Assembly: GCA_038087875.1 (NCBI GenBank) | Contig: CM075989.1 | Location: 18,540,001 to 18,600,000 of the forward strand | Origin: Malacoraja senta | Lineage: Eukaryota | Length of the DNA stretch: 60,000 bases | Direction: 5' to 3' | Part shown: positions 10,081 through 47,896 of the stretch, in pieces | Layout: the number at the start of each line of letters is the position of its first letter | How positions within the stretch are numbered: the stretch's first letter is position 1 | The notes under the pieces: model-generated | Told to the model about the DNA's origin: nothing | The model's input: the letters and a program-made list of their open reading frames with translations, nothing else | Databases searched by the model: none | Program-made: the position numbers and the translations under genes

Positions 10081-11009
10081 TCAGGCAGCATCTCTGGAGA
10101 ACATTAGCAGGTGATTTTTGGATCGGGACCCTTCAGTCTGAAGAATGGTCCCGACCTGAGACGTCACCTATCCATGTTCTCCAGAGATGCTACTTGACCT
10201 ACTGAATTACTCCAGCACTCTGTGTCTTGTCCTGAAGTAATACTTCATTAATCTTGGCCCCCCAACCAGTCTTCTGAGAGGAGATCCTCCAACCACCTGA
10301 ACGTACACAAGAAGCATAGGTCTGATTACCGCATCTAAAAGATGATACACCCAGAATTTTCACTTGAGTCTTTGAGGATGGAATTTGAACCGCCAACCTT
10401 CTGATTATTGGATGTGTACATTGCGTCTTAACGCCATTCAACACAACTACCAGGTTTTCCCTCCTTCGGGCTAGAACGTTACACAGCCACTGGTCTATCC
10501 CAGATACTCAAGAAATATCAAGTGGAAATTGAATTTGTTCATTGCATTTAGGAGCTTGCGACATTGAATGGAGTGTAATGAATCCAAGAGAAGCAATTCA
10601 TGTCATGTCAAGAAAAAGCAATTGAAATTCACCTTCCAACTCTTTAACATAAAGGACAATGATCGGGCTTTGCAATAGCTGCGGAGAATCGTTTCAAAGG
10701 AGAACAATCAATGTTGAAATGATTCCTGTGAAACTGTGTCAATTGAATGGAGTCATGTGCCTATCGGTATTTAACATCTCTCAAACAGGCAGCACTACGG
10801 TGAAACTAGTACATCAGCTCCCTCAATGCTGCTGCTCCACAATTCAATCCTGACATCTTATCTCTATGAAGGTTGCACCTTCTCCCTGTTTATTGTACAG
10901 GTTTTCCCCAAATGTTCTGGTTTCCTTGCACATCAAAACATGTGGGTTATTTGGATTATCTCTGGTGTGTAAAAGTGGATGATGTGGAGAAAGTCACGTG
11001 GGTTAGTGT

Positions 11010-11415
11010 CATTCTCCGTGGATTGTCACCTTGTCGTGGTGGAGAAGCTTGTGTGGACCTGAGATCCTGAGAGCGATGCCGTCTGGAGCTATGCTCCTGG
11101 TAGGGCCACCCATGGCAGTAAGGTCAAGGGGGAGGTCTCTGACAAAGAGCAATCCAACCAAGACCTCAACAGTGGAATAGGCGGAGGGTGATGGCTGACT
11201 TTAGTGGAGCGTCACAACGGCTGGGAAGGCAGATGAAGGCTGCAGCAGGAAAGGGTCCCCAGTCGTCTTGGACTCCATGCCACTGGATTCTGACCCAGAT
11301 CTGTCAAGTACCGTGGGGTGGCTGTCTGTGCACCAGTCTCCCCGCGTTAAACAAAGTCACGCACAGGTGTCCTCCCTGAGAGGACAGCCATACTCGTTTC
11401 GAGTGACCGCCGATG
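11010..11415 (+). mobile_element. RTE-clade-like (Rex3/Expander-type 5' end) non-autonomous retroposon
   Basis: 5' motif ggattgtcaccttgtcgtggtggag...gagctatg...ggtagggccaccca resembles RTE 5' UTRs as recalled; 3' end gaccgccgatga; agtgt duplicated at 11005-11009 and 11416-11420. Confidence 0.65.
11012..11155 (+). ncRNA. Predicted HDV-like ribozyme with extended P4
   Basis: P1 ttctcc/ggagaa, P2 ggattgtc/ga(g)caatcc, P3 acc/ggt, L3 ttgtcgt, P4 base gacct/aggtc, J4/2 C-AAA at 11143-11146. Confidence 0.6.
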
Positions 11416-11436
11416 AGTGTAAATGAATGCTTGATG

Positions 11437-16270: not shown

Positions 16271-16874
16271 AAGGCCTGTCTCACGAATCTGCGGTCATTG
16301 GCAGCGAAACGGGAAGAATCTGCCGCCATAGACCGCGCACTCGTGAGAACGTACAATTCCCGGGCCGTGCGGCGGTGTTCCCAACACCGCGCGGTGCTAA
16401 AATAAAATCGACAATGTTGAAAACACTATACTCACCGCACAACCTCCACCAGTGATGCACAAGTGCGGCACGGCCGCTCGCACGGGCCGCCGCCAGTGTG
16501 GGTCGAGCGCCGTGCGTCAAACCTCCTCTGCCACAGCCTCCGCCAGTGAGGCATGTGCCGCCGCCAGTGAGGCACGTGTGCTGCGTGGCCGCAGTCACAG
16601 CCACCGCTACAGCGCCGCGATCAGGATGGCCACTGCCACAGCCGCCGCTAGTGAGTCACGTGCGGCGGGCCGACGTCATCGCAGTCGGCCCGCCCTTTTT
16701 TTACTTACCGCAAGCACGTGGGACCCGCCGTGTTTGAATTAACTCGGCCCCCGCGCAACATCCGTGCGGCGCTCCGGTGGATAGGCTCGACGCTCTCGCC
16801 GTTGCCGCGCGGTCCTCGCTACCGGCGACGCCGCGCTTCACCGCCGATGACCGCAAACAGGTAAGACAGAGCCT
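16271..16874. mobile_element. GC-rich PIF/Harbinger-type MITE, copy A
   Basis: Ends aaggcctgtctcacga ... taagacagagcct; flanked by TTA at 16268-16270 and 16875-16877. Confidence 0.8.
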
Positions 16875-16877
16875 TTA

Positions 16878-17410
16878 AGGCTCTGTCCCACAGGTTTGCG
16901 GTCATTGGCGGTGAAGTGCGGCGTCGCCGGAAGAGGGGACCGCACGGCAACCACGAGAGCGCCGCACGGATGCTGCGCGGGGGCCGAGTGATCTCCGTAC
17001 GGCCGGTTCCACGAGCTTGCGGCGTCGGGTGATGACGTCATCGCGCAACGCGACGCGCTACGCGATGACGTCTTTCGGATCGCGGGGCTGTGGCGGTGAC
17101 CGTGCCGCACTCGTGCCTCACTGGCGGCGGCTGTGGCGGCGGCCGTGCCTCACTGGCGGCGGCTGTGGCGGTGAAACTTCGACTCACGGCGCTCGTGCCG
17201 CACTGGCGGCGGCTGTGGCGGTGACCGTGCCGCACTCGTGCCTCACTGGCGGCAAGAAATTATTTTTAGACAGTGTTGACTTTTTGTGAGCCCGGCACCG
17301 CACGGCCTCGGCGGTGTGCGTTTGACCGAACCCGCGGTCTCTGGCGGTCCACGAGCGGTAGATACTTCCTGTATCACCGCCAATGACCGCAGACTCGTGA
17401 GACAGGCCTT
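16878..17410. mobile_element. GC-rich PIF/Harbinger-type MITE, copy B (inverted relative to A)
   Basis: Ends aggctctgtcccac ... tcgtgagacaggcctt; TTA at 16875-16877 and 17411-17413. Confidence 0.8.
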
Positions 17411-17754: not shown

Positions 17755-18025
17755 AGGTAGACAAAAATGCTGGAGAAACTCAGTGGGTGCAGCAGCATCT
17801 ATGGAGCGAAGGAAATAGGCAACGTTTCAGGCCAAAACCCTTCTTCAGACTACAATTAACCTACAAACAATTTATTGGATAATTTATTACATACTGTCTG
17901 AAGAAGGGTTTCGGCCCGAAACGTTGCCTATTTCCTTCGCTCCATAGATGCTGCTGCACCCGCTGAGTTTCTCCAGCATTTTTGTGTACCTTCGATTTTC
18001 CAGCATCTGCAGTTCCTTCTTAAAC
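17755..18025. mobile_element. Inverted-pair Penelope insertion with intact hammerhead core
   Basis: Fold-back arms 17755-17850 and 17896-17990; aaacagagataaaatgta duplicated at 17737-17754 and 18022-18039. Confidence 0.82.
17898..17925 (+). ncRNA. Minimal type I hammerhead ribozyme motif
   Basis: CUGAAGA-A-[GGGU UUCG GCCC]-GAAA-C-GUU; stem I is weak. Confidence 0.55.
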
Positions 18026-18164: not shown

Positions 18165-20645
18165 TTTTTATTTTTTAAATTTTTTTTAAATTTTATTTAT
18201 TAGAAGCACATTACGTTACAACCACATCCATTAGTACTCGTCACATATATTTTATTATAATTAATGTACTCCGTTTGTTTTGTTTTTTACATTAATAAAG
18301 GGAGAGGATAAGATTAAGAGAAAGAGGAAAGTGAAGGAAAAGGTGAAAGTGTAAAAAAAAAAAAAACCGTGACAACAAGAAAGAACAAAGACCCTATAAG
18401 AAAAAGAGTTAAGATGTAGACCCTAGAAAAGAAGAAGAAAAAGAGAAAGGAAAAAGAGAAGAACAAATACCTTTTTTATCAGCATCCCGCAAATGGGACA
18501 TACCAAATCTCCAATTTTCATCCCCCCCCCTACCCGACCTCAGTTTTTTTTTAAGTACCTTTGCACCCTATATTTGTAATAATTCTATAAATGCCGACCA
18601 CGTCAGATGGAAGTGATCTGGTTTACCTGCCAGGAGGAGTCTTATCTCTTCTAGGTGTAATGTTTCGAACATATTTGAAATCCACATGTTTATAGTTGGT
18701 ATTGGAGCGTTTTTCCAAAATTTTAGGATTAACTTTTTTCCAGTTATTTACCCATAGTCTATTGGTTTCTTTTGAAACACATTTAGTTCTGGACTATCTT
18801 CCGTTATTCCGAAGATAATCCATTCTGCTTTGGGTATCAGTTTTATTTTAAATAATTTTGTAAAGATTTCAAAAATGTCAATCCAAAATTTTTGAATTTT
18901 TGTACAAAAGACAAATGAGTGCGCTATAGTAGCTTCTTGAGATTGACATTTATCACAGTTTGATGATATATTTGGGAAAATTTTATGGATTTTAGTTTTA
19001 GAATAGTATAATCTACGTAAAATTTTGAATTGTATTAAAGTATGTCTTACATTTATCGAACATTTATGCACTTTTAATAAGTATTCATTCCACTTTTCCT
19101 TTGAGATTTTAATAGCTAAATCTTGTTCCCATTCTCTTCTAATACCTTCCGTAGATGGTATTTCTACATTTAAGATAATATTATACAAATATGATATTGA
19201 ATTTGCTGAATCAGCTTTTATCTGCATTGCATCATCCAAAACATCTGCTGAGCTATTATAATGATCTTTTATATATTTTTTCAAATAGTCACATATTTGA
19301 AAATATTTAAAATATTGATTATTTCCAAGTTTATATTTTATTTGTAATTGCTGAAATGATAGTAATTTTCCAGTTTCATACAGGTCACCGAACGTTTTAA
19401 TTCCTAGTCTATCCCATTGTATGAAGGCTTTATCTGTAGTAGAGGGATTAAACAAATGGATTAACTATGGGAGATAAAAGTGAAAAATTTCTTAATTTTA
19501 AATTTTGTTTTATTTGTTTCCAAATTCTGATTGTACTATGTATGATTGGGTTCTTATTATAGTTTATGTTATTCAGTTTCGTTGGTGAGAGGAGGATCGC
19601 TCCAATGTTTCTAGAGGAGCAGTCCTCTCTCTCCATTACAATCCAATCCACTTGCTGAGCAAAATTATCCATCAGTTGAATCATATTTTTAATATTTACT
19701 GACCAATAATAATACATGAAATTAGGGAGTGCTAAGCCCCCTAGTACTTTGGGTTTGTTCAGGTGTGTTCTTTGTATTCTATGTGATTTATAGTCCCATA
19801 TAAAATTAGTAATGTCTGAGTCCAGTTTAAAAAAAAACTTCTTTGGTAAGTATATAGGAATCGATTGAAATAGGTATAAAGTTAGTGGAAGAAAGATCAT
19901 TTTTATTGCATTTATTCGGCCTATTAAAGACATCGGGAGCGTTTTCCAAAATTTAATTAATGTATTTAATTTATTAAGTAAAGGCTCAAAATTTGCTTTA
20001 AACATACCTTGATATGTTCTGGTAATTTCGATTCCCAGGTATTTAAATTTTTCTGTAGCTATTTTAAAAGGGAATTTTAAAAGATGTGTTGAGTCTTTCG
20101 GTTTTATTGACATAATTTCACTTTTATTCCAATTTATTCTGTATCCAGAAAAAGATCCAAAGTCTTCAATTAAGTTTAATATATTTGGTATAGTGATTTG
20201 AGGTTTTGTAATGTACAGTAATATATCATCCGCGTATAAAGATATTTTATTATTTGAGTATTTAGTATTATACTCATGGATATCGGGATGTATTCTAATT
20301 TTTTCTGCTAGCGGTTCAATTATAAGAGCAAACAACTGTGGTGATAATGAGCACCCTTGTCTATTTCCCCTTGATAGTTGAAATTTCGAAGTTAATATAT
20401 TATTAGTTAATATTCTAGCTGTAGGTTTATTATATAGTAATTTAATCCATAAAATAAAATTCTTTCCCAATTGGAATTTTTCTAATACTTTATCCATATA
20501 ATTCCATTCTACTTGATCAAATGCTTTTTCAGCGTCCAGCGAAATAATTGATAATTCTTGTTCTTCAAATTTATGTGAATGCACTATATTGAGTAAACGT
20601 CTCATATTATTAGCTGAGCATCTCTTCGGGATAAACCCCGTCTGA
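18165..20645 (-). mobile_element. 5'-truncated L1-clade LINE with poly(A) tail
   Basis: 15-bp TSD gcccaagcgaaatat (18150-18164 / 20665-20679), AATAAA and A-rich tail at 18165-18201, AT-rich ORF2. Confidence 0.93.
18568..20643 (-). pseudogene. L1 ORF2 (RT + CCHC domain), truncated and frameshifted near 19450 and 18770
   Basis: QTGFIPKR, SLDAEKAFD, GNRQGCSLSP, ISLYADDILLY, YLGI, CDKC-x8-H-x4-C. Confidence 0.92.
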
Positions 20646-22019
20646 AATATGCACCTTATATTCCGCCCAAGCGAAATATAAGGTGGAGTTCCTACAATTT
20701 GCGCTGGGCCTCACTCTGCCCAGGACAGAAAGGTTACAACTGGTTGCTTCACTACACGCATCATTAAATCCTGACACATTAGTGTCACTTGAATTTGACC
20801 TAGAAATATGTAATAAATTCTCTAATAAATTATCTAATAAATTCTCACATCATCAAAACTTAACATTTAAACAGGCAAGCTTGCAGCACAGAACAAAACA
20901 ATTTTTTTTAAACCCTCAGTGATAGCTTTACTTGAAATGATCATTAAGAAATGTCATAGCTGTAGTCAACTTGACAGACAATCTACAGGTCATCTACTTA
21001 AAGAATTTATTACATTGCAGGATGAATTGTACAATTACTGACTCGTTGGAACAGCAGTTAAACAGTCAAAATGGATTGATATTCCAATGTGATAACACAG
21101 CTCTGTGACTTGCTTAGAATCAATTGTTGGGCCATTCCCAGCCAGAGTTGAGATAATCTCATGTTATATCAAAGCACATCCTTCGTGTTGTGAGAGAGCT
21201 TCTCGCAACTGCAGCATTGGGTTTCCAAGTCTCTGATAATAGTCTGCATGAATCTATACCATCGTATCATCAATCTGTCCTCTGCTTCCAAGTACCAGCC
21301 CTGCAGGCATTCCTTGGTCTAAGTCAATGAGCTGGATACCCCCCCCCCCCCCCCCCCCCATCCTTGTACTTGCCTCAACTACCTTCTCTGGCACCTTGCT
21401 CCATAAACCCACCACCCTCCGAGTGGAAAAATCTGTTCCTCGGGTTCCTATGAAATCTTTCCCCACTCACTTTAAACCTATGTTCCCTGGTACTTGACTT
21501 CCCTACCTTGGAAACAGAATAGATCAGAGACAGATACAGAATATTGAAACCAGGAACTGCAGATTCAGGTTTACCAAGAAAAGCCACAAAATGCTGGAGT
21601 AACTCAGTGGGTCGGGCAGCATCCCTGATAATGCTGATGGTACTTCACTGTACCCAGGTATATAGCTACATGTGACAATAGTCACATGTACCTACTGTAT
21701 ATACCTGGGTACAGTGAAATTCTTTGCTTTGCATGCACTGCAGTAAATTCATACAACAGATAAGCACAAGCATAGATAAGTACAAAGGCAATTGTCTAAT
21801 ACAGTAGACTTAACTGAGTTGCCACATTTCTGGCTCCCACAAAGTTTCAAGAGTGCAGCCTTAAAGGCCCATTGGAATGGATCTGCAGTACCTTGTGTCC
21901 ACAGTTAGTTTCTACAATGTCAATGGATGAGCCAGCCCTCGGCCTTTGTAGGGCCCTCGGACACCAGCTTGCAGCGCTCAGCAAGCACAGAAAGGACTCC
22001 ACTTGTTGATGTGACAAGA

Positions 22020-29061: not shown

Positions 29062-29955
29062 AAAAGCACCTGTGGTCAGAATCGAACCAGGTTCAAGAGT
29101 GAGAGAATATGTGTCAATGGGCTGGGATAACATTCTGCTGTCGGGTGCGTGGCTGTTGTTCAAGGCCCTCGGGTTGTTGCGGGAGGGTTGTGCTGAGAAC
29201 AATAACAAGCAGCACTGGGCCAAACGTGGAGGTGGCTGCAGATGATCAGCGTGAGGTGGGAACTGAGCCGGTCCCTTATTTAAGAATAAAGTTTCAGAAA
29301 CGTTGCTTCCAAAGGATGGTAAATGGTTCAATGTGACTCACTACAGGATTAGCCCATTAGTCAGAACATACAGCAATGAAGCCGGGAAAACTGCTTCTGG
29401 GCAAGGTCATTAGTTCCCTCCAGTCAGCAAAGCTGTCTGTTTTTACAGCATCAAATGCATCACTTGTTCCCCTCTACTAACCCTCTCCTCTGCCTGGCAC
29501 AACCTGTCCCCGCCCTCAACGACTTCTCCTTTGACTCCTCTCACTTTCTTCAGGTTTAGTCTAGACATGCGGCGTTGGTCATGTCTGACCCTACCTCACT
29601 ACCCTTGTCCTGTTTACTCCCCCCTATACCAACAGTCAGCCTGAAGAAGGGTCCCAAGCCAAACCCTGTCTGTCCATTCCCTCCACGGTTGCAGCCTGAC
29701 CTGCTGAGTTCTTCCAGTGTTTTGCCTGTCATCGCACCTCAAACAACAAGGGAACAGTCACAACAGGAATGGTGCAGGGAAAGGTGGGGTATGACAACAT
29801 ACAACATCTCCCAATAATCATTTCGCTTGTGATTAAAAGCTTGTGTTCATGAGGAATCAACATATATTTAAATCGCTTCGCCCAACACCTCCGCTCAGTT
29901 CGCATTAATCAACCTCAACCTGATCTCCCGGTGGCTCAGCACTTCAACTCCCCCT

Positions 29956-32900
29956 GCTGTATCTAAATGCACGGAGTATTCGAAATAAGATAAATGAATT
30001 AACGGTGCAATTAAGTACATATAGTTATGATATCGTGGCCACTACGGAGACATGGCTGCAAGGGGATCAGGATTGGGAGTTAAATATAGAGGGGTACTCG
30101 ACAATTAGAAAAGATAGACAGGAAAGAAAGGGAGGAGGGGTGGCCCTTTTAATAAGGGAGGGAATAACGGCAATAGAGAGGAAGGATATTGCGTTGAAGG
30201 ATCAGGATAGTGAAACAGCTTGGGTACAGATAGAGAATAACAAGGGGAAAAAAACACTAGTGGGTGTAATTTATAGACCTCCAAATAGCTGTGACGCTGT
30301 TAGTCAGAACATAAATCTGCAAATAGTTGACGCATGTAAAAAGGGAACTGCTGTAATCATGGGGGACTTCAATTTTCATATTAATTGGGCAAACCAAACT
30401 GAGCAGGGTAGACTAGAGGAAGAGTTTATAGAATGTATTAGAGACGGGTTCCTAGAACAGTATGTCACAGAACCGACAAGGAGGGAGGCAATCTTGGATC
30501 TGGTCCTGTGTAATGAAGCAGGATTAATTAAAAATGTCATAGTTAGGGACTCGTTGGGAACAAGTGACCACAATATGGTCGAATTCCATATTCAAATAGA
30601 AGGAGAGCAGGTTGAAACTCAGGCTAGGGTACTTAGTCTAAATAAAGGGGATTATGAAGGTATGAGGACTGAGCTGATCAAAGTTGACTGGGATAGCAGA
30701 CTCAAGAATAAGACGGTACATGAGCAGTGGTGTACGTTTAAGGATCTACTGTATAACCTTCAAGAAAAATGTATTCCTATGAAGAAAAAAAGGGGTAAGG
30801 GAAAGAACAGTCAGCCATGGCTCAGTAAAACTATAAAGGATAGTATTCGGCTGAAGGCAAGGGCATATAAGGTAGCTAGAGATAGTGGGAGGGTAGAGGA
30901 TTGGGAAGCATTTAAAGGTCAGCAAAAAATAACTAAGAGATTAATTAAGACGGGGAAAATAGACTATGAAAGGAATTTAGCGAACAACATAAAAACTAAT
31001 AGTAAGAGTTTTTATAGCTATATAAAAAGAAAAAGGGTGGCTAAGGTGAACGTTGGTCCATTGGAGGGTGAGACTGGAGAGTTGTTGGTGGGGAACATGG
31101 AAATGGCAAAGGCATTAAACGAGTATTTTGTATCAGTCTTCACCATAGAAGACACAAAAAATATTCCAACGCTGGATAAACAGGGGGCGGTAGGAATGGA
31201 GGAGCTAAATACTATTAAGATCACCAAGGAGGTGGTATTAGGGAAATTAATGAGACTGAAGGAGGATAAATCCCCTGGGCCTGATGGATTACATCCAAGG
31301 GTCTTGAGGGAGATAGCGGTGGGGATTGTGGATGCATTGGTGATAATTTTCCAAAACTCCCTGGAGGCAGGAACGGTCCCAGTGGATTGGAAAATGGCCA
31401 ATGTAACACCTATATTTAAAAAAGGAAGTAAACAGAAGGCGGGTAACTATAGACCGGTTAGTCTAACATCGGTGGTGGGTAAAATGTTAGAGACAATTAT
31501 TAAAGAAACACTAACGGGGCACTTGGATAAACATGACTTCATCGGACAGAACCAGCATGGTTTTGTGAAGGGGAAGTCCTGTTTAACGAATTTGCTCGAA
31601 TTCTTTGAGGAAGTAACAACCCGGGTGGATAAAGGGGAACCGGTGGATGTGGTATACTTGGACTTCCAAAAGGCTTTTGACAAGGTGCCACATAAGAGAC
31701 TATTGCTAAAAATAAAAAATTATGGGATTGGGGGTAATATATTAGCATGGGTAGAGGATTGGCTAACAAATAGGAAGCAGAGAGTGGGGATAAATGGTTC
31801 ATACTCGGGATGGCAACCGGTAACTAGCGGGGTTCCGCAAGGGTCGGTGCTGGGACCCCAGTTGTTCACAATTTATATAAATGATTTGGAGGAGGGAACC
31901 AAGTGTAATATATCAAAATTTGCGGACGATACAAAAATGGGAGGAAAAGTAGGGGATGAGGAGGATAGGAAGAGTCTGCAAAAGGATATAGATAAGCTAG
32001 GTGAGTGGGCAACAACTTGGCAGATGAAATTTAATACTAATAAATGTGAAGTCATTCACTTTGGGAAAAAAAATGATAGGGCAAGTTATTTTCTAAATGA
32101 GGTGGAGCTGCGTTGTAATGCAACGCAAAGGGATCTAGGGGTAGTAGTACATGAATCACTAAAAGTTAGTATGCAGGTGCAGCAAGCAATCAGGAAGGCC
32201 AATGGAGTTTTGGCCTTTATTGCTAGGGGGATTGAGTATAAAAACACGGAGGTCTTGCTGCAGCTGTACACAGTATTAGTGAGACCACATTTGGAATACT
32301 GTGTACAGTTCTGGGGTCCATACTTAAGAAAGGATGTACTGGCCCTGGAGGCAGTGCAGCGAAGGTTTACAAGATTAATTCCTGCAATGAGGGGATTGAC
32401 ATATGAGGAAAGGTTAAGTAGGCTGGAACTCTACTCTTTGGAGTTTAGAAGAATGAGAGGCGATCTCATTGAAACATATAAGATCGTGAGGGGCCTTGAT
32501 CGGGTGGATGCACCGAGGATGTTCCCAATGATCGGGGAAACTAGAACTAGGGGACATAGTTGTAGAATAAGAGGGGGCTCTTTTAAAACTGAGATGAGGA
32601 AGAACTTCTTCACCCAGAGGGTGGTTAATTTATGGAATTCACTGCCCCAGGGAGCAGTGGAAGCAGAAACATTAAATATATTTAAGTCTAAAATAGATGT
32701 TTTTTTAGCTGCCAAGGGGATAAGGGGCTACGGGGAGAGGGCAGGGATATGGACCTAGGTATGGTTAGTATAGTAAGACCTGAGTGATCTCCTGGACAAG
32801 TGTCGATCGCCTGGATTGGGGTCGGAGAGGAATTTCCCGGATTTTTTTCCCGAATTGGACCTGGGTTTTTATCCGTTTTTTTGCCTCCCCCAGGAGATCA

Positions 32901-40297: not shown

Positions 40298-41000
40298 AGG
40301 AAGGAACTGCAGATGCTGGTTTACGAAGATAAGACACAAAAAGTTTGACTAACTCAGCGGGTCAGGCAGCATCTCTGGAGAGAAGGAATGGGTGACGTTT
40401 CGGGTCGAGACCCTTCTTCAGACTGAGAGGAAGGGGAAAGGGGAACGAGAGAGATATAGACGGTGATGTAGAGAGACATAGAACAAAGGAATGAAAGATA
40501 TGCAAAAAAGTAACGATGATAAAGGAAACAGACCATTGTTAGCTGATTGCTAGGTGAGAACGAGAAGCTGGTGCGACTTGTGTGGGAGAGGGATGGAGAG
40601 AGAGGGAACACAGCAGTTACTTGATGTTAGAGAAATCAGTATTCCTACCACTGAGTTGTAATATTAATTTCTCCAACTTCAAGTAACCTTTGCTTTCCCT
40701 CTCTCTTCATCCCTCCCCATCCCAGTTCTCCGACTAGTTCTACTGTACTCTTGATTAAATATTACCATAGTGCCGCATAGTCACCTTCCCCTCAGCTAAC
40801 AATGAACCATTCTACATTTCATTACCATCTGCTCCGATCTGTCATTTTCCCACCTTGCCCTTCATATCTCTAGATTCAGTCTCCCCTGACTCTCAGTCTG
40901 AAAATGGGTCTCAACACGAAACATCACCCATTCCTTCTCTGCAGAGATGCTGCCTGTCCCGCTGTGTAAAGCAGCATCTGCGGTTCCTTCCTACCCATCA
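40298..41000. mobile_element. Two Penelope 3' fragments in inverted arrangement (minus 40298-40660, plus 40661-40995; upstream piece at 40095-40141)
   Basis: Homology to 33170-33476 and 17520-18164; intact hammerhead core on the minus strand at 40394-40421. Confidence 0.8.
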
Positions 41001-47711: not shown

Positions 47712-47896
47712 GACAAAAATGCCGGAGAAACTCAGCGGGTGAGGCAGCATCTATGGAGCGAAGGAAATAGGTGACGTTTCGGGTCCAGACCCTTCTTCAG
47801 CCTTCCTTCGCTCCATAGATGCTGCCTCACCCGCTGAGTTTCTCCAGCATTTTTGTCTACCTTCGATTTTCCAGCATCTGCAGTTCCTTCTTAAAC
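47712..47896. mobile_element. Inverted-pair Penelope insertion; intact hammerhead core on minus 47773-47800
   Basis: TSD aatgaaagtaggtc at 47698-47711 and 47897-47910. Confidence 0.82.

Follow-up and report, generated by a model that had tools for sequence, protein, structure and literature searches.

The repeat at positions 11011–11415 of the window (the whole 60,000-nucleotide stretch of Malacoraja senta contig CM075989.1 analysed here) is, very probably, an internal-deletion copy of an RTE LINE whose 5' HDV-like ribozyme would cut a read-through transcript before the first C, yielding the RNA that the LINE proteins would copy. Directly observed were the origin of the element, the scattering of its copies, flanked by target duplications and ending in (GAT)n, the 5' end common to these copies and the compensatory changes in P1, P1.1 and P4. 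The features of this non-coding dispersed repeat of 405 bases are listed below.

11005–11009, + strand: left target-site duplication, 5 bp; the identical 5 bases are at 11416–11420
11011–11155, + strand: HDV-like ribozyme fold with predicted cut 5' of 11011 (alignment and covariation; family and LINE 5' ends at 11011)
11011–11017, + strand: P1 5' strand, 7 nt, pairing with 11041–11047 (compensated in the sister family and relatives)
11020–11027, + strand: P2 5' strand, 7 bp with 11149–11155 or 8 bp with a bulge (family and cross-family alignments)
11028–11040, + strand: P3 (3 bp) and the 7-nt L3, in which G11033 pairs with C11048 as P1.1 (alignments)
11041–11048, + strand: P1 3' strand (11041–11047) and the P1.1 partner C11048 (alignments)
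11055–11138, + strand: large branched P4, 84 nt (13 of the 25 pairs of its five helices change on both sides)
11063–11066/11122–11125, + strand: second helix of the branched P4
11077–11083/11114–11121, + strand: P4 helix closing the three-way junction and enclosing hairpins 11085–11097 and 11103–11111
11143, + strand: J4/2 cytosine predicted to be catalytic (C in all 49 family rows)
11156–11375, + strand: remaining LINE 5' UTR segment (11012–11375 aligns with the 5' end of six LINE loci at 87–93%)
11376–11377, + strand: deletion junction, about 3.5 kb of LINE missing (LINE alignment; at least 244 exact genome matches to the junction pattern)
11378–11415, + strand: last 38 bases of the LINE 3' UTR (92–97% to 10 of 10 LINE loci)
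11391–11405, + strand: 6-bp hairpin within the LINE 3' UTR piece (predicted fold)
11416–11420, + strand: right target-site duplication, matching 11005–11009

The agtgt duplication that the original prediction had placed around the element is present on both sides (11005–11009 and 11416–11420); because it measures only 5 bp, against 6–13 bp in other copies, it is the weaker support. The window copy ends in a single unit of the (GAT)n tail, and longer tails are found in other copies. The absence of an ORF was borne out insofar as no protein homology was detected, but ATG-initiated frames of chance size, up to 62 codons, do occur. A search of the M. senta genome (1.94 Gb) returned 3143 first-look candidates, and the best 40 of these, when scored, all covered nearly the full 406 bases, the 39 other than the window copy at 93–95%. 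Thirty loci were read: they have (GAT)n ends, target duplications and, with the exception of two near-duplicate pairs, unrelated flanks. The first 20 bases of the element have at least 538 exact matches in the genome; this count and that for the junction are lower bounds, as only exact patterns were counted, and the copy number lies between hundreds and a few thousand. Divergence from the column majority has a median of 2.0% among the 28 best distinct copies (4.4% for the window copy), and the family as a whole is older than this median implies since those copies are the top hits. The element was amplified in its own right after the deletion, one junction being shared by many copies with separate target duplications and distinct flanks. 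Other deletion junctions, with nearly the same 5' boundary and 3' pieces of about 35–150 bases, were seen at seven further loci (L087, L088, L090, L084, L085, L096 and L100) retrieved with a pattern selected for the 5' boundary; with several distinct junctions, the deletion seems to have occurred or been remodelled more than once. Splicing was rejected as the cause of the deletion because there is no GT donor at the junction.

LINEs of the RTE clade have a single ORF with AP endonuclease and reverse transcriptase (RT), a short 3' UTR and a tandem-repeat tail. A pattern anchored on the 3' end of the element, from which the element's own upstream bases were excluded, gave 215 genome matches, most of them the terminal part of a reading frame that encodes a zinc-finger-like motif at its C-terminus. 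When ten of these LINE loci were extended to 5 kb, the last 38 bases of the element were common to all ten and its first ~365 bases were also found in six, of which five are colinear over 3.5–3.9 kb and one is inverted. Four of the five full-length copies start at the same C as the element, and the fifth has a short junction duplication. Both ends of the element thus recur in full-length LINE copies of this genome, and the element is a derivative with an internal deletion, made of the first ~365 and the last 38 bases of the 3.9-kb LINE, which upholds the proposal of a bipartite non-autonomous RTE derivative. The LINE has a 5' UTR of ~690 nt, of which about half is retained in the element, a 3' UTR of ~54 nt, of which 38 bases are retained, and a (GAT)n tail. 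No small-RNA-derived head (tRNA, 5S or 7SL) is present in the element, the whole 5' part aligning with the LINE 5' end from the first base. The LINE frames match the Pfam endonuclease (PF03372) and RT (PF00078) domains, and together with the short 3' UTR and the tail this is the RTE anatomy; all five full-length copies, once translated, are interrupted by stops or frameshifts, and as the frames are broken the ORF is presumed to be single. This anatomy, with a by-eye UTR match to named RTE families, points to an RTE-type parent LINE: 11156–11375 resembles the RTE-2_Croc, RTE-7_PM and IdioSINE2 lines printed in the Kojima 2018 supplement (PMC5786205).

A DUF6451-bearing RTE family was rejected as the parent, as it shares no end with the element in the 20 loci read out of 150 scored. 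It is a separate RTE-like LINE family (L051–L070) with (AAG)n ends, whose copies are 87–95% alike.

The first 145 bases of the element are likely to form an HDV-like ribozyme, as judged from sequence comparison. The pairings originally proposed are present: P1 at 11012–11017/11041–11046, P2 at 11020–11027/11147–11155, P3 at 11028–11030/11038–11040 around L3 (11031–11037), the base of P4 at 11056–11060/11133–11137, enclosing 72 nt, and the ggagc-tat-gctcc sub-hairpin at 11085–11097. The inner P4 pairing proposed at 11077–11082/11112–11117 fits the element family by eye but not the relatives, in which a shifted register (11079–11083/11114–11118) covaries. The parts follow the nested double-pseudoknot order P1, P2, P3, P1.1, P4, with a P1 of 7 bp and a P3 of 3 bp, and the J4/2 C with its A-rich turn and the U...C-G of L3 are present, as in HDV-like ribozymes. 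We aligned 49 rows comprising the element and LINE 5' ends, two near-duplicates included. The J4/2 cytosine, correctly placed at 11143 by the original prediction, is C in every row; P1.1, a single C11048–G11033 pair with the purine on the loop side, is G-C in 46 of 48; U11031 and G11036 of L3 are kept in 48/49 and 45/49, respectively; and the core is fully intact in 23 of the 49 rows. A core descriptor matched once in the window, at this element, and 200 shuffled windows gave one match; having been built from this candidate, the descriptor biases the control towards the fold. Neither at the gathering score nor at E values up to 1 did any Rfam ribozyme family match. A further HDV-like ribozyme was sought in the window with Rfam, with a model of this family and with a looser descriptor, the last of which failed to detect even this copy; none was found, and the first ribozyme implied when the original prediction called this one 'second, unrelated' was thus not located.

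Conservation among the 49 rows starts at 11011, which is C in 36. The original prediction held that the first ~3 nt of P1 were lost from the window copy; in fact only one base, the first of P1, differs (A for C at 11011), as 11011 is C in 36 of 49 rows and 11012–11017 match the majority. Within the fold the window copy departs from the majority by three changes, this one and two G-to-A changes in P4. With A facing G at the cut-site pair, it is likely to be a slower or dead copy. Copies starting with A were considered as a 'CA-start' subfamily, but the base before the A-start form is C in 12, G in 26 and T in 18 of 56 matches (A not counted); these copies are a junction variant and not a subfamily. 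Among 30 copies of the element, the best target duplication ends exactly before +1 in 7, and 14 more leave 1–4 extra bases.

A sister family of 310 bp is present in the same genome (888 first-look candidates, 40 scored). It is about 72% alike over the fold; its P1 differs in sequence yet pairs in full, and in 11 of 20 copies the best duplication stops immediately before +1. Its 3' half is different and its tail is (AAGT)n (L005:2032–2340, + strand; L033–L050); none of the LINE loci examined proved to be its parent. A metagenome scan yielded 12 related stretches (L071–L082), several of which continue into endonuclease-like coding sequence. These stretches have the same ribozyme core, which heads short tailed elements or LINE-like starts.

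The covariation check called for with the original prediction was made on a 14-row alignment of four rows from the element family and LINE, two from the sister family and eight of the 12 stretches from the metagenome (the four omitted were two carrying an insertion, a duplicate and a truncated one), and compensatory changes were found. Paired cells amount to 88%, compared with 80% in shuffles and 31–48% in slid controls. Both partners differ in 15 of the 36 pairs, of which 13 belong to the P4 helices and one to P2, the remaining one being P1.1. P1.1 is G-C in 11 rows and A-U in three, the latter coming from two lineages; no A-U form was found in the M. senta genome. Pairwise mutagenesis has shown that the P1.1 pairs of CPEB3 and HDV are rescued by Watson-Crick swaps (PMC9901934). 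P1 was counted apart because the length of J1/2 varies: in 13 rows, 7/7 pairs form in six, 6/7 in two and 5/7 in five, counts that are inflated since the best of nine offsets was taken. A C-G pair at +1 is present in 8 of these 13 rows. The J4/2 C is found in 11 of the 14 rows and missing from three. P3 and L3 give no covariation signal, being invariant and fixed by the search pattern, and the folding energy of P4 is no better than that of shuffles (z from -1.1 to 0.6, five sequences). Of the three metagenome stretches with an A-U P1.1, two have U in place of the catalytic C.

We propose that a copy of the element would be transcribed by read-through from a neighbouring host promoter rather than from a promoter of its own, and that the HDV-like fold would cut the transcript before +1. 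The LINE protein, acting in trans, may then bind the 3' hairpin and tail and reverse-transcribe the RNA at a nicked target site; the copy so made would begin at +1 with zero to four extra bases. Among the sequencing runs listed as containing the element, none is recorded as RNA and 23 are of uncertain type. RNA reads were taken from a single stranded poly(A) run on a related organism, of which 6% was examined, 528 reads aligning to 11012–11415. In an exon control the first mate read against the RNA in 28 of 28 reads; the dominant read-through copy is therefore antisense and silent on cleavage. Sense depth is about 30 at the first bases and 50–70 inside the element, and starts at +1 show no pile-up among the matches listed, where the listing threshold and 336 loose-end rows beyond the listing could hide one.

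The strongly expressed copy, which has two changes in the 3' strand of P1, lies antisense in a polyadenylated host transcript of the related organism; its flank was not found in the M. senta genome. The exon used as strand control (L093:982–1531, - strand) is the last coding exon of a NET1/ARHGEF3-like gene, and a 5'-truncated copy of the element lies just upstream of it in the same direction.

The same origin would also be compatible with a 5' end that is defined by an RNA polymerase II promoter inside the LINE 5' UTR, the fold then being secondary, slow, vestigial, or a protective or translation structure. There is a precedent in L1Tc, in which the first 77 nt act as promoter and as ribozyme alike (PMC3185411). 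The 220 nt of UTR kept past the ribozyme, the same 5' segment retained by several deletion variants (found with a pattern selected for it), the departure of C at +1 from the HDV consensus and the lack of a pile-up of read starts among the matches listed could all be read in this way. Yet in two families with different P1 sequences the 5' end coincides with the first base of P1, the J4/2 C is kept in every one of the 49 rows, and a tRNA-headed squid SINE that by eye shares the UTR segment and the tail starts only past the ribozyme (PMC5786205), as expected if cleavage would remove the SINE head. We regard a promoter-defined 5' end as unlikely.

A base G at +1, the classical HDV consensus and described as invariant in HDV-like ribozymes in a review (PMC8495972), is not what the family has: 36 of 49 rows have C and the window copy has A. 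G1 is not strictly required, as C1 ribozymes cleave in vitro, cleavage 5' of C1 having been mapped for trypanosomatid HDV-like ribozymes (PMC4035085). One could instead suppose that P1 has 8 bp and that the cut needs a flanking G one base upstream, only the minority of copies inserted after G being active; a G at -1 could pair with C11048, G1 is the usual cut-site base, and R2 ribozymes borrow P1 bases from the target (PMC3774820). But daughters would then begin with G. The original prediction, which anticipated a consensus P1 extended to G, did not survive comparison with the genomic copies: G precedes only 64 of the 538 exact matches to the first 20 bases and T precedes 210, and this frequency of G is below the 26% of sampled flanks. 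In the 49 rows the preceding base is T in 24, A in 14, C in 6 and G in 5. An upstream G would moreover consume the sole partner of P1.1, which covaries from G-C to A-U; it has indeed been argued that with G at -1 P1 becomes longer and a one-pair P1.1 is disrupted (PMC3185411). We consider a G-extended P1 highly improbable, and from these alignments P1 is best described as 7 bp opening with a C-G pair, not 8 bp beginning with G. For HDV, the order of bases at -1 is U > C > A > G (PMC1874588). That T is overrepresented and G scarce before the copies follows this order, and is explained as easily by junction chemistry. That the pairings are a chance structure in an ordinary LINE 5' UTR is scarcely credible: the lack of an Rfam match and of a P4 energy better than shuffles would suit it, but compensatory changes across distant relatives, the HDV-like spacing of all core parts and the coincidence of the fold with the element boundary speak against it.

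Self-cleavage before the first C is thus the reading we prefer, and a wider one may be entertained, though it is less likely than not: the element could be the vertebrate face of an animal-wide subclass of RTE ribozymes absent from Rfam, with a C-G cut site, a reversed one-pair P1.1 and a conserved three-way-junction P4 that persists in derivatives without coding capacity because it has a separate function. Were this so, P4 might activate the ribozyme, shield the uncapped 5'-OH end or dock the LINE protein, and hundreds of intact copies could cut host pre-mRNAs that hold them in the sense direction. Within a single genome lie the parent LINE, its shortened derivative, hundreds of point variants and a sister family whose P1 is compensated, a natural test set for the formation of RTE 5' ends by self-cleavage, which in vertebrates is mostly a prediction. 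Knowing the role of the 5' fold would be of practical use as well, since RTE UTRs serve in gene-writing templates (PMC13708176).

Other repeats were observed in the window. An uninterrupted 944-codon endonuclease/RT frame at 29924–32758 (+ strand), which we take to be a CR1-type LINE ORF2, suggests a young copy. Two adjacent frames of 420 and 238 codons in an AT-rich stretch (18748–20710, - strand) are presumably of L1/Tx1-type ORF2. A long, GC-rich, near-perfect inverted repeat at 16787–16965, with weak Rfam miRNA-type matches below threshold, is possibly a MITE, and similar hairpins are present at 17806–17940, 40573–40728 and 47729–47840.

The basic biology is known: RTE ribozymes, bipartite RTE derivatives and ribozymes with C at +1 (the L1Tc family) are already in print. 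RTE elements are reported to carry 5' HDV-like ribozymes and to give rise to bipartite derivatives (PMC5786205), both of which are also described in PMC7245038, and RTE ribozymes are cited in PMC6765202 and PMC3774820. Neither this family nor an RTE ribozyme with a branched P4 appeared in the literature searched, with Ruminski et al. 2011, Repbase and Dfam lying outside the comparison. Like the element, RTE-N2_Lch, RTESINE2, WALLSI3, MAR4_MD and Bov-A consist of the 5' and 3' ends of an autonomous RTE joined by internal deletion, with a microsatellite tail, target duplications, no ORF and no small-RNA head (PMC5786205); the host and the parent family are different.

The printed 5' UTR lines of RTE-2_Croc, RTE-2_LCh, RTE-7_PM, RTE-7_CPB and IdioSINE2 match 11160–11375 by eye, and the tail of IdioSINE2 matches 11378–11410 (PMC5786205 supplement). 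IdioSINE2, from squid, differs by its tRNA head and, in the printed line, by being without the ribozyme part: by eye, its RTE-derived part starts just after the ribozyme and stops at the same 5' UTR boundary. This agrees with the proposal by Kojima that an RNA-headed SINE has to lose the ribozyme. Also by eye, the 'unknown' tail of IdioSINE2 matches the 3' end of the LINE, the hairpin having the same stem and a different loop, which suggests a source for that tail.

L1TcRz (L1Tc/NARTc) and the SIDER ribozymes, all from trypanosomatids, share with the element the C at +1, a one-pair P1.1 and the retention of the ribozyme in an internally deleted non-autonomous partner (PMC3185411, PMC4035085); they belong to the ingi/L1Tc clade, measure 77–126 nt and have been assayed, whereas the fold described here is about 145 nt and predicted. 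The RTE 5'-end ribozymes of Ruminski et al. 2011, known here through the papers that cite them (PMC5786205, PMC6765202, PMC3774820), likewise have a nested double pseudoknot at the very 5' end with a predicted boundary cut; in comparison with what those papers describe, the element may be set apart by its C-G cut-site pair, the L3-side purine in P1.1 and the 84-nt branched P4.
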